Below are positions 1 through 3,471 of a stretch of 3,471 bases of DNA, piece by piece. The stretch's first letter is position 1. Each line of letters begins with the position of its first letter. Under the pieces are notes generated by a model. The model saw only the letters and a list, made by a program, of their open reading frames with translations. It was not told where the DNA came from and did no database searches. Origin of the DNA: a virus (Duplodnaviria > Heunggongvirae > Uroviricota > Caudoviricetes); the IMG/VR virus record IMGVR_UViG_2663763280_000007, positions 1 to 3,471 of that record; one strand, 5' to 3'. Position numbers and translations under genes: made by a program.

Positions 1-324
1 GTGTTCGCACCGACCTGGCTTGGGTTATCGTTTTACGATAGCCGCACCACGTCGTTGTTGCATCCTGCTCGCCAGATCCAGCTTCCCAGCCTGCAACGCG
101 GTGAAGGTGAAGCGATGCTTACCGCCCTCACCCATCTTAGCCGTTCGCCGCTGGAGCAGAATATCTCCATTAGTCTGATTCAACTTAAATTGCAGGCCGG
201 GCGGAAGCTGATGCAGGCAGAGACCACCCGACTTAACACTGTGCTGGATTACATTGACGCGGTGACGGCAACAGATACCAGCACAGCGCCGGATGTCATC
301 TGGCCTGAACTGCCGGAGGCGTAG
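1..324 (+). CDS. Tail fiber assembly protein, alternative cassette copy; C-terminal 107 codons only, 5' end truncated by the window edge
   Basis: Open frame runs from the window start to a TAG stop at 322-324. Its C-terminus (LDYIDAVTATDTSTAPDVIWPELPEA) is paralogous to that of the minus-strand Tfa (LDYLDALELVDTSSVLDIEWPTPPAVQAR), sharing the pattern GR-L ... LDY-DA ... DTS ... D--WP--P. Convergent orientation against the other tfa gene fits the second cassette of an invertible fiber segment. The antisense ORF 25..333 has no comparable motif. Confidence 0.7.
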   Translation: MFAPTWLGLSFYDSRTTSLLHPARQIQLPSLQRGEGEAMLTALTHLSRSPLEQNISISLIQLKLQAGRKLMQAETTRLNTVLDYIDAVTATDTSTAPDVIWPELPEA

Positions 325-748
325 GCCATTCAATATCTAGCACACTGGAGGTATCAACCAGCTCCAGTGCGTCCAGGTAATCCAGCCACAAATTATATTG
401 CGCCAGTTCCTCGTCTTTCAGACGACCAATAGCGGCTTTACCGGGCCATTGTTTACTGTTCATGTATTCGTTGGCCTGGTTAATTAGTAGCTGTCTTTCT
501 GATTCAGTAATTTCAATAAGTTCTTCATGCGTGGGTGGAGGAATATCTGCCCACGCAGGCAGCCCATCTTCTCCGGCAATACGGATTTTTCCTTGTGGCG
601 GTTCAGCCATAAACTCACTGATAATATTTTGATTTACTTCCTTAGCGTCTGATAAATCCCATCCCTCTGATTTATATTTATCAATCATATCCACAGGGAA
701 AAAAGCATTATGCCTTGCGCTATAAACATATTCATTCATATAAATCAC
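296..748 (-). CDS. Tail fiber assembly protein (Tfa chaperone), 150 aa as drawn
   Basis: Lies immediately downstream of the tail fiber gene on the same strand, with the fiber stop at 760-762. The C-terminal WP-x-x-P motif and size are typical of Tfa/Mu U-type chaperones. The codon at 746-748 is GTG, not ATG; an in-frame ATG at 737-739 is preceded by AGGGTG (SD-like, about 5 nt spacing) and may be the true start, giving 147 aa. Stop is TGA at 296-298. Confidence 0.8.
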   Translation of the reverse strand: MIYMNEYVYSARHNAFFPVDMIDKYKSEGWDLSDAKEVNQNIISEFMAEPPQGKIRIAGEDGLPAWADIPPPTHEELIEITESERQLLINQANEYMNSKQWPGKAAIGRLKDEELAQYNLWLDYLDALELVDTSSVLDIEWPTPPAVQAR

Positions 749-759
749 CCTGAATAAAA

Positions 760-1422
760 TTACTCACCAACAGCCCACCAACTGTAATTCATCGATACCG
801 TGTCGCTGGTTGATGACGTTCTGTAAGCAGAATTAAAGCCGGTTAACGTTGGGCCTTCTGCAGTCATCACGAACCCTCGCCCAGCGCCTAAAGGCGCACC
901 GCCATCACCAGAATGAGTAAGCATGGCGCAGTCCGCTTTTTTGGGGAAAGGGATGCTGAATGTAATTCTCATTGTTTGCGTCGATAATGTCGGCGTAACC
1001 GCACCACGACCATATTGCAGGATTTTCCCGTTGGGTAATTTCATCCATCCATCACCACTGGCAAAAGAGGCCATGTCCGGTATCTGATTTTCCCCTGTCC
1101 CCACATCCCGTTTTGCCGCTTCTCCCAAACCAAGGTTTTCGAGAGCCGTTTTCACCGTGCCATCCGATTTGATATCACCAAACGGATTCTTGCGGCTTAA
1201 CAGCAGAGCACGAAGCGCGGTAAGCAACTGGTCATGCCGCCCCTTCTCCAGGCTGGCACCGGAGGTCTCCACAACGCTGCAAAGCTCCTCCTGCAACATG
1301 TCAAAGTAGTCATCATCCAGATCGGTGGCAGGCGTACCAGTCTGGGGGTTACCACGGGTAAAACCGTTCTTACCCGCGCCGAACTTATCCTTCTGCGCGG
1401 TTTTCGTATCTATACGATGCAT
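760..1422 (-). CDS. Short side tail fiber protein, 220 aa: about 92-aa N-terminal constant anchor fused at an LENLGLGE junction to an about 120-aa receptor-binding tip
   Basis: ATG at 1420-1422 is preceded by GGAG about 6 nt upstream, lying inside the end of the upstream gene. Residues 93-101 (ALENLGLGE) are encoded by the crossover-like palindrome at 1120-1145. The downstream motif ([19 protein letters not shown] ... [13 protein letters not shown]) resembles the distal tip regions I recall from phage side tail fibers. Position between a gp48-like gene and a tfa gene matches the canonical order. Confidence 0.85.
1120..1145. other. Putative crossover site for a Din-family serine invertase (hix/gix/cix/pix-like), 26 bp
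   Basis: Sequence TTCTCCCAAACC-AA-GGTTTTCGAGAG: two 12-bp half-sites in inverted orientation around a central AA dinucleotide (left TTCTCCCAAACC, reverse complement of right CTCTCGAAAACC; 9 of 12 match). This closely resembles the hixL/gix sites as I recall them (TTCTTGAAAACCAAGGTTTTTGATAA-like). It sits in frame within the tail fiber gene at the conserved LENLGLGE junction. Confidence 0.75.
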
Positions 1423-1425
1423 GGA

Positions 1426-2010
1426 TTACTCCGGATATTTAAAAATTACGTAGGTATGCGACGGGCAGAGTTTGTTAAGCACACACTCGACAACGGTGTC
1501 GCCCCAGATACTCAGTGCGGAATCACAGGGATCGCCACATGTCATCCAGGTGGTGTTGGTGGCGGCTGGCATGTTGACCTGCCAGTAATACCGCCATTCC
1601 GGCGCATTCACCGCGTCAGTACAGGCCGATGAGCAGGTGAACGTGCTTTTGTCGTATCGCGTGATGGTGGCGTCTGGTCTGCCCAGGGCAGCAAGCTGTG
1701 CAAGGTAAAAATCCTCATTGATGCCGCCCGCCAGGTTAACCTTCGCATCCAGTCGTTGCTGACGCTGGCGAAGGGTCTGTGTCCCTGCGGGAATACATTC
1801 ATCCGGCAGGCCGCACAGACGCTCCCAGCGATTTATCAGTTCGGTGGTGGTGCGCGGATCCAGCTCCCGCATCAGGGCATCCGCACGCTGATGAACACGG
1901 GTTAATGACGGTGCCGCACCGGCAATCGCCGGATCGCTGGCTGACCACGCCGGACCGGGCGGCAACAGTGCCGATAACAGGCGGATGTAATCATCGTTTG
2001 TCACGTCCAT
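1426..2010 (-). CDS. ymfQ: Mu gp48-like / YmfQ-family (DUF2313) phage tail protein, 194 aa; probable baseplate component analogous to P2 gpI
   Basis: ATG at 2008-2010 overlaps the upstream J-like gene by 10 bp (J stop TGA at 2001-2003). The N-terminus [24 protein letters not shown] and the 194-aa length match what I recall of enterobacterial YmfQ-type proteins. Position between the J-like and tail fiber genes is as in Mu (gp47-gp48-S). Stop TAA at 1426-1428, 3 nt before the fiber ATG. Confidence 0.85.
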
Positions 2011-3059
2011 GAAATCGTCCCCAGTACCGCCAGTTCGTTTTTCGCAATGGAGATATTGTCCACCGGTGCAAGCAACTGATGGCTGTATTCCCCGTTCGCA
2101 CCGGAAATCGCTTCACTGATACGTGACACCTTCAGTTCTCCCTGCGGATAACCATCACGCAGCAGGAACGAACGCAACTCGGCGGTGATGGCAGCCCGTA
2201 TTTCCGGTGTGTCCGGCGTCACGCGGATATGAAAATCCACTTTATGCGCCACCGGCCTGAATACATACAAATCAGAGCCTGCCACCGGGGCCAGTGGCTC
2301 AATGTGTTGTCTTGCCGCCGTTTCCGTTGATTCTTCCGGAATGGGATTAATCAGGTCACTGCTGGCAATCATCACACCGACAGTCCCCGTTCCCATCCAG
2401 TGGCGGTATGTCCATGCACGGGTAATGCCGGGCACTTCTTTAGCCCAGACAACATAGTCCCCGTCAGCCCCGCCCTGAGGCGTCCAGTAATACCGCTCAA
2501 TGACGCGGGCGCGCCACGTTTCCAGCTCTTCAGTATCAAATCCACCTGTCAGAGTGTCTGCCACGCCGGAAGACGGCAGACCATTCACCGGCGTGACCAG
2601 GATTAATGCCGTACCGTCGTCAGCGTTACCGACCGCTCCTGCACTTGAGCAGGCGATCGGCACGCGCAGGACACCACCGGAGCTGGTTGCATCGGCAGTT
2701 GCCGTGTACTGAACCAGATCATCGCGCTGAATAACACTCCCGGCGGTCACCTTCAGGCCATCGCTGACACCTTCCCAGCGCATATACCCGCTGGCAGCCG
2801 TGGCCCCCTTGCGCGGACACCGTTTCATCGCAGCATGTCGCGCCAGCCAGGACTCATCGCACAGGTCAGGCAGCATGTTCATTGCCAGATAATCGATGTA
2901 ACCGTAAACCGTATGCAGCGCCGCCGCATACACCTTTGCCCGCACGTCTTCATCCATGCGCCGGAGCGTGTCGCTGACGTCCAGCCTGGCGAATAAATCG
3001 TTACGGAGCATACTGATATTTTCTGCCAGCGTCGGGCGCTGAAATTCACTGTCCGCCAT
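2001..3059 (-). CDS. Baseplate J-like protein (Mu gp47 / P2 gpJ family), 352 aa
   Basis: Long, GC-rich ORF with ATG at 3057-3059, overlapping the stop of the upstream gp46-like gene by 14 bp. Size and position (after the gp46-like gene, before the gp48-like gene) fit the baseplate wedge J family. Plus-strand ORFs 2400..2606 and 2500..2712 lie wholly inside it and are taken as antisense shadows. Confidence 0.85.
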
Positions 3060-3471
3060 GCGTTATCGCACTCCACAGATCATCAAAAGAAATCATTACC
3101 GGTCCGTCACGACGCCAGAGAGTGATACTGTTACCCAGTTCATTAATCCCGGTGCGGCGGATATCCAGATCAATACGGGACACCACACCGTCATCAATCA
3201 TCCATTGCAGGCATTCGCGGATATACCCCCTTACCGTCTGCACCAGCTGATTGGTCAGTTTGCCGCGCTGAAGCAGCCACAGCCGGGAGCCGTAACGGTC
3301 ATTCTGTACCGCAGGCCAGGTATCCCCCCACCATCCCATCGGGACGTCGGCATTGTCATCAGGCTCCGCCCGCCGCCAGGTGAACAGGGAAATCACCACG
3401 GCGCGGGTCAGCGGATCCAGCGGTGCGCTGGCGCAGGTGCGTTTACCGTTCACCGTCAGCCACAGTTCCAT
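3046..3471 (-). CDS. Mu gp46-like small baseplate protein (Phage_GP46 family; functional analogue of P2 gpW), 141 aa
   Basis: Contains GWWGD ... GSRLW-L motifs that I associate with the GP46 family, and 141 aa is typical for it. ATG at 3469-3471 is the last codon of the window, so the upstream context and RBS cannot be seen and a longer N-terminus cannot be excluded. Stop TGA at 3046-3048. Confidence 0.75.
   Translation of the reverse strand: MELWLTVNGKRTCASAPLDPLTRAVVISLFTWRRAEPDDNADVPMGWWGDTWPAVQNDRYGSRLWLLQRGKLTNQLVQTVRGYIRECLQWMIDDGVVSRIDLDIRRTGINELGNSITLWRRDGPVMISFDDLWSAITHGGQ

Follow-up and report, generated by a model that had tools for sequence, protein, structure and literature searches.

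The 26-bp imperfect palindrome at positions 1120-1145 of the window (the whole stretch of 3,471 bp that was analyzed) is, judged by its sequence, the known pix site on the fibre-gene side of an e14-type invertible P segment, and it forms the exact joint between the constant and the variable part of the tail-fibre gene. In close relatives the corresponding switch is real: fibre tip and chaperone are exchanged there and both orientations are seen. The copy in the window is best read, with slightly better than even confidence, as a decayed one, a fossil switch frozen in the gp53-like orientation.

The crossover site at the constant/variable joint of the fibre gene

The pix-type crossover site TTCTCCCAAACCAAGGTTTTCGAGAG occupies 26 bp (1120-1145); it belongs to neither strand and is read here on the plus strand. 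It consists of a segment-side half-site of 12 nt, TTCTCCCAAACC (1120-1131), the 2-bp core AA (1132-1133) and a constant-side half-site of 12 nt, GGTTTTCGAGAG (1134-1145), the reverse complement of which is CTCTCGAAAACC. Reading the half-sites TTCTCCCAAACC and CTCTCGAAAACC off the sequence, 9 of 12 positions agree around the central AA. This is the 26-bp layout of invertase sites, with two imperfect inverted half-sites of 12 bp and a core of 2 bp, and the palindrome of the Hin/Gin/Cin/Pin type announced by the first-pass annotation was thus found at its place. None of 200 dinucleotide shuffles contained a match to the 26-mer within 3 mismatches.

The site lies in frame within an open reading frame on the minus strand (760-1422), the tail-fibre gene of 220 amino acids. 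Translation of the minus strand from 1120 to 1146 gives ALENLGLGE, in which LENLGLGE corresponds to fibre residues 94-101, in agreement with the peptide that had been predicted for the site. The position of the joint was taken from an alignment of five homologues, namely the window protein, StfP of K-12, the "flipped" fibre of O157:H7 and the fibres of SKA5 and SfIV. Residues 1-101 are almost invariant in this alignment and similarity collapses directly after E101, which confirms the earlier proposal that the site sits where a conserved N-terminal part meets a variable tip.

Another inverted repeat of the window, 18 nt long (89%) with arms at 243-260 and 369-386, is not a recombination site; it arises because the convergent chaperone genes share a conserved C-terminal motif (LDYIDA and LDYLDA) on opposite strands. 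A comparison with Rfam gave no match to an RNA family within the window.

Identity with known crossover sites

The site is identical in 26 of 26 positions to the one inside stfP (ycfK) of the E. coli K-12 prophage e14. It shares 20 of 26 positions with cixR of P1 (TTCTCTTAAACCAAGGTATTGGATAA) and 18 of 26 with gix of Mu (TTCCTGTAAACCGAGGTTTTGGATAA), the cix and gix sequences being those annotated in the P1 and Mu phage records. The e14 P segment comprises 1,797 bp between two inverted repeats, TTGGTTTGGGAGAAGG and CCTTCTCCCAAACCAA, which lie within stfP and stfE (PMC12529663); 15 of the 16 nt of CCTTCTCCCAAACCAA are contained in the site of the window. The K-12 partner TTCTCCCAAACCAACGTTTATGAAAA is inverted, lies in stfE and adjoins pinE. 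The assignment of the element as the known pix site follows from the identity with the stfP site, the published e14 repeats and the matches to cix and gix. An alignment to the known sites, which had been recommended as a check, therefore came out in favor of the first-pass annotation, and so did its expectation of a known mechanism rather than a new system, with the e14 P region as an example. For e14 it has been reported that both orientations coexist in cultures of MG1655 (PMC4272514) and that PinE, PinQ and PinR all invert the P segment, PinQ and PinR acting in trans from other cryptic prophages (PMC12529663).

Genes surrounding the site

The window covers the distal end of a contractile-tail module of the Mu type; the prophage to which it belongs is SfV/e14-like, has a Mu-type baseplate and resides in Escherichia coli. 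The Pfam assignments given here were taken from identical proteins of relatives. Three baseplate genes on the minus strand precede the fibre gene: a Mu gp46-like protein (3046-3471; PF07409), a baseplate J or Mu gp47-like protein (2001-3059; PF04865 with PF26078 and PF26079) and a YmfQ or Mu gp48-like protein (1426-2010; PF10076), the first two also assigned by the annotations of relatives and the third annotated there as ymfQ. The constant 5' part of the fibre gene, codons 1-101 (1120-1422, minus strand), was delimited by the open reading frame, the alignment and the translation and ends in the crossover site. It is followed by the variable tip that is now expressed, codons 102-220 and the stop codon (760-1119, minus strand), which was recognized by its gp53-like C-terminal domain (PF21882, Gp53-like_C) and by the divergence after residue 101. 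The tail-fibre assembly chaperone cognate to this tip, with 147 amino acids (296-739, minus strand; PF02413, Caudo_TAP, and annotation in relatives), lies inside the invertible segment.

The remaining DNA is read on the plus strand. Positions 166-324 hold a remnant of tfaE, the alternative chaperone gene, with the last 52 codons and the stop codon; it is 100% identical to nt 445-603 of tfaE in a complete chromosome (L003) that encodes the same fibre protein. The remnant and the gene for the 147-aa chaperone are convergent and overlap by 29 bp at their 3' ends (296-324). Positions 1-165 come from the host gene ypdC, of which they match nt 292-456 (codons 98-152) with 100% identity over 165 nt; this fragment is in frame with the tfaE remnant and is not phage DNA. 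The alternative cassette that had been placed at 1-324 on the strength of a tfa gene was thus correct for 166-324, which is derived from tfa, and wrong for 1-165, and a label of tail-fibre assembly for the open reading frame 1-324 is unwarranted since it begins with 165 nt of ypdC.

In its source records the identical fibre protein is labeled Escherichia coli. The nearest isolated phages are vB_EcoM-720R4 and SKA5 of E. coli and the serotype-converting Shigella phages SfIV, SfII, SfV and SfI, with 95-97% identity.

The complete switch in close relatives

The chromosome L003 is 100% identical to the window from 166 to 3471. Outward from the fibre gene it carries tfaE (200 aa), a promoterless fibre exon with a collar domain, the partner site TTCTCCCAAACCAACGTTTAAGAAAA and a gene for a 184-aa protein with Resolvase and HTH_7 domains. 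The 184-aa Pin proteins of the relatives show 94.6% identity with PinE, 81% with Cin and 74% with Gin. An inverted partner site is present in L001-L003, L005, L010, L013, L014, L016 and K-12, and the whole switch is also found in the isolated phage SKA5 (OR670062).

When the segment was flipped in silico an in-frame fibre of 256 amino acids resulted, which is identical to a real open reading frame in L007 and L013. A natural inversion was found in two O157:H7 strains from one project, ECP19-598 and ECP19-2498: the flanks are 100% identical, a block of 1,903 bp is inverted, and both breakpoints of this block lie within the 26-bp sites. In a set of 5,426 complete E. coli genomes, 451 carry the flipped junction as contiguous sequence and 72 the unflipped junction seen in the window. 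The strain pair and these genomes bear out, for the phage family, the claim of the first-pass annotation that inversion swaps the fibre tip together with its chaperone. The P1 record annotates an enhancer at nt 19-90 of cin, and a homologous stretch, presumably with the same function, is present in pin of the relatives.

Two of the records are short-read contigs that run into perfect hairpins. In L007 (GCA_001911015.1, LRKK01000146.1; 1-5301) positions 1-1719 recur at 3583-5301 as an exact reverse complement, and the constant fibre region with the upstream genes flanks the invertible segment on both sides, turning at the pix sites. In L023 (2346-4760) the pin end is duplicated and three sites are present. 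Such contigs fit with mixed orientations in the sequenced cultures, and equally with two copies or duplicated prophages.

The partner sites of L003 (10169-10194), L005 (10169-10194), L011 (6606-6631) and L016 (2588-2613) have the same inner half-site and AA core as the site of the window. Their outer halves vary widely (CGTTTAAGAAAA, GTTTTCATAAAA, CGTTTATGAAAA and CCTTTCAAATAT). This variation suggests that the demands of the invertase on the outer half of the pin-side site are very loose.

The switch is incomplete in the window and in its source record

The window corresponds, in exact reverse complement, to positions 5952-9422 of the source locus L008 (E. coli draft GCA_000945835.1, scaffold CCCB01000122.1). 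This record ends 2 bp past the window and 167 nt after the junction of ypdC and tfaE at 165/166. A second crossover site was not found in the window when it was searched with the exact site allowing 3 mismatches and with a degenerate consensus, and when all inverted repeats were listed. No partner was detected in the whole of L008 or in its sister record L006 (GCA_001373215.1) either. The window also contains no open reading frame for a serine invertase (about 184 aa, Resolvase and HTH_7), and the record ends before one could follow.

Two convergent cassettes are therefore not present in the window. One is complete (296-1119), and of the second only nt 445-603 of tfaE (166-324) are left, beyond which ypdC begins, so that 967 bp (166-1132) of a segment of about 1.89 kb are contained in the window. 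The site is solitary in this record because the switch is interrupted beyond the tfaE remnant and host sequence from ypdC stands in place of the missing part. The first-pass annotation had expected, upstream of position 1, an inverted partner in a promoterless 3' fibre exon and a serine recombinase gene. The former is absent from the window, L008 and L006, and in place of the latter L006 runs into ypdC and ypdB with neither a fibre exon nor pin. For the source genome the proposed phase-variable receptor specificity is consequently unsupported, as the record has no partner and no invertase. The annotation had itself named the lack of these two elements as evidence against its proposal, and by that standard the window shows either a fossil switch or a faulty assembly.

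The ypdC/tfaE junction: truncation or artefact

At the junction nt 292-456 of ypdC (1-165) are joined in frame to nt 445-603 of tfaE (166-324). Completed with the upstream part of ypdC, the record would encode a YpdC-TfaE chimera of 204 amino acids. In the reading that we favor as a little more probable than its opposite, the join results from a genuine truncation, which leaves room for a slightly different exact junction or for a dropped short repeat. The break itself would then be biological, the fibre of this record, lacking a partner site in cis, would be locked in its gp53-like state, and the 26-bp site would have been kept only because it is also coding sequence of the fibre. Three observations agree with a decayed copy. 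The sister record L006 places the 5' part of ypdC beside the 3' end of tfaE in the same orientation and register and continues into ypdB; the junction of the window contains no N; and decayed switches with a lone site recur in well-assembled relatives, namely L004 and phage SfIV.

L004 diverges from L003 at about nt 14 of tfaE. From position 9688 onward unrelated DNA stands where the second fibre exon, the partner site and pin would be. This DNA includes a resolvase, which was excluded as a Pin-type invertase with 36% identity to PinE. In SfIV (L017 1981-3659; KC814930) the element ISEhe3 abuts the truncated tfaE, and the lone intact site is kept.

The main alternative, to which we assign a real but somewhat less than even probability, is that the source genome carries a live and complete switch. 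The join of ypdC and tfaE would then be an artefact of scaffolding or gap closure, and the partner, the collar exon and pin would be located on another contig. Several findings argue for it. L006 (9205-9240), apart from the source record the sole one in which ypdC adjoins tfaE, differs from the window (160-200) at the join in a block of equal length, 25 nt, which is nt 445-469 of tfaE in the window and nt 457-481 of ypdC followed by NN in L006. This difference looks like the signature of one scaffold gap of fixed size that was filled from opposite sides, in which case reads extend both ypdC and tfaE past the apparent junction. The truncation, moreover, is read from a single draft scaffold, which is implausible around the window. 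In L008 the 1.2 kb beyond window position 3471 (4780-5960) is a chain of unrelated gene fragments of 150-535 bp with runs of N, including ruvB, a 4Fe-4S ferredoxin-like piece, eutP/eutQ and others, and phage homology begins just 65 bp upstream of gp46. Either the record is badly mis-scaffolded in this part or the genome is extremely rearranged, and the source scaffold looks unreliable at the ypdC/tfaE join as well.

The junction, moreover, was not found elsewhere. Positions 1-165 are contiguous with the rest of the window in 0 of 5,426 complete E. coli genomes, a 32-mer across the junction has no exact match in the GTDB species representatives or the JGI metagenomes, and among 5.8 billion protein clusters no YpdC-TfaE chimera was detected, the hits being YpdC in its normal form or with a frameshift. 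The full switch is present in most of the relatives whose DNA is identical. On the other side, an artefact would have to account for two separate records with the same neighborhood, orientation and register, for a junction free of N and for the natural occurrence of truncated lone-site copies. The 5' part of tfaE occurs, in the median, at one place per genome, which gives no reason to expect a repeat-induced contig break there.

Two candidate causes of the join were rejected. A contig break at a multi-copy repeat near nt 445 of tfaE is unsupported, as the 5' part of the gene is usually single-copy, and a junction made by Pin at a pseudo-site is contradicted by the lack of an AAACC-NN-GGTTT-like sequence at the ypdC or the tfaE breakpoint. 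We also noticed a 19-nt inverted repeat (16/19, with an exact core of 12 nt, AATATCTCCATT) with arms at 153-171 and 2046-2064, one spanning the junction and the other in the baseplate J gene. With about 0.5 such pairs expected by chance in the window it is probably a coincidence, even if its position on the junction is odd.

Could the lone site act in trans?

A more elaborate version of the truncation is that illegitimate recombination removed half of the segment, froze the fibre and created an in-frame YpdC(1-152)-TfaE(149-200) protein, leaving an orphan site as a rearrangement hotspot for Pin supplied in trans; we give it only a slim chance. Very improbable, in our view, is the wider proposal that the lone site is a live substrate which Pin made elsewhere pairs with a pix-like site of another prophage, with large chromosomal inversions or deletions as the result. 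It draws on the inversion of the e14 P segment in trans by PinQ and PinR of other cryptic prophages (PMC12529663). All 26 positions of the site are intact, and up to 9 places similar to the window exist per E. coli genome. Against this, the analysis turned up neither a partner of this kind nor such a rearrangement, and nothing resembling pix is present at the 165/166 junction. Invertases in general need an enhancer in cis and a supercoiled synapse for efficient inversion, which disfavors very distant sites.

That the palindrome is nothing but a feature of the sequence coding for LENLGLGE, with no role in recombination, has a practically negligible probability: the unchanged site in the partnerless copies of SfIV and L004 indicates that selection on the protein alone can keep it, but the site of the window is identical to one inverted experimentally (PMC12529663) and matches the annotated cix and gix sites, and the breakpoints of the natural inversion fall within it, so that the O157:H7 strain pair and the published experiments refute this explanation at the level of the family.

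Proposed working of a complete copy

In the Hin, Gin, Cin and Pin systems an enhancer in the 5' part of the invertase gene, bound by Fis, leads to the invertasome. The serine recombinase then makes double-strand cuts with a 2-bp stagger, the subunits rotate by 180 degrees and the strands are religated. The relatives described above have two inverted 26-bp sites with a common inner half-site and AA core, an adjacent recombinase of the Pin family and an exchange of the tip in frame; by analogy the same catalytic mechanism can be assumed for them. In a complete copy the serine invertase Pin, together with Fis on an enhancer in the 5' part of pin, would pair the site with its inverted partner about 1.89 kb away. 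Both sites would be cut with a 2-bp stagger at the central AA/TT, and the strands would be rotated and rejoined. The segment would consist of two convergent cassettes, tip plus chaperone and chaperone' plus tip', and the constant 97-101 N-terminal residues would be fused either to the gp53-like tip, giving the fibre of 220 amino acids (the state of the window), or to the collar-domain tip, giving the fibre of 256 amino acids.

The two tips probably confer different receptor specificities. For the e14 P segment a role on the side of the host has been described, as it blocks adsorption of phage T2 (PMC12529663), and the products of cryptic copies may likewise serve the host, as reported for StfE2 against this phage (PMC12529663). 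On account of this role the invertibility of a strain's copy is of some physiological interest. Beyond correct annotation the present copy is of little importance. A lone, perfectly conserved crossover site is no proof of a live switch, because it is also part of a coding sequence and has persisted in the decayed copies of SfIV and L004 and possibly in the window.

Comparison with known systems

The tail-fibre inversion switches of e14, P1 and Mu have been textbook material since the 1980s; the e14-type switch is well known and nothing in the site of the window is new. The closest system is the P segment of e14 in K-12, which has the same 26-bp site at the same position of the fibre gene, the same 101 constant residues and the same gene order, ymfQ, stfP and tfaP followed by tfaE, stfE' and pin (pinE in K-12). 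Tip and chaperone differ: the fibre of the window is 62% identical overall and has 220 instead of 209 amino acids, and its chaperone has 147 instead of 137. The gp46 and baseplate J genes are intact in the window and decayed in e14, whereas the stfE-side site and pin, both present in e14 of K-12, are missing from the window.

Prophages with a Mu-like tail in O157:H7 and other strains, and phage SKA5, have the same site and 95-98% DNA identity over 166-3471 of the window. Their switch is complete, with partner and pin, and occurs in both orientations between strains, while the copy of the window stops at nt 445 of tfaE. In SfIV, SfII, SfV and SfI the module of baseplate and fibre is 97% identical to the window. 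SfIV has the same kind of decayed switch, with an identical lone site and tfaE cut next to ISEhe3; there an IS element caused the truncation and 525 nt of tfaE are left, compared with 159 nt and ypdC as the neighbor in the window.

The flagellar switch of Salmonella, Hin/hix, uses the same recombinase family and the same design of 26-bp sites as pix, but it flips a promoter rather than the 3' exon of a gene and involves no fibre genes. The C segment of P1 (cixL/cixR, Cin) and the G segment of Mu (gix, Gin) follow the same logic as the e14-type switch, with the constant part of S, a site, Sv-U and U'-S'v, a second site and the invertase. In both phages the fibres are much longer, the segments measure 3-4.2 kb and the tips are unrelated to those of the window, and in Mu the two gix sites read identically over 26 nt.
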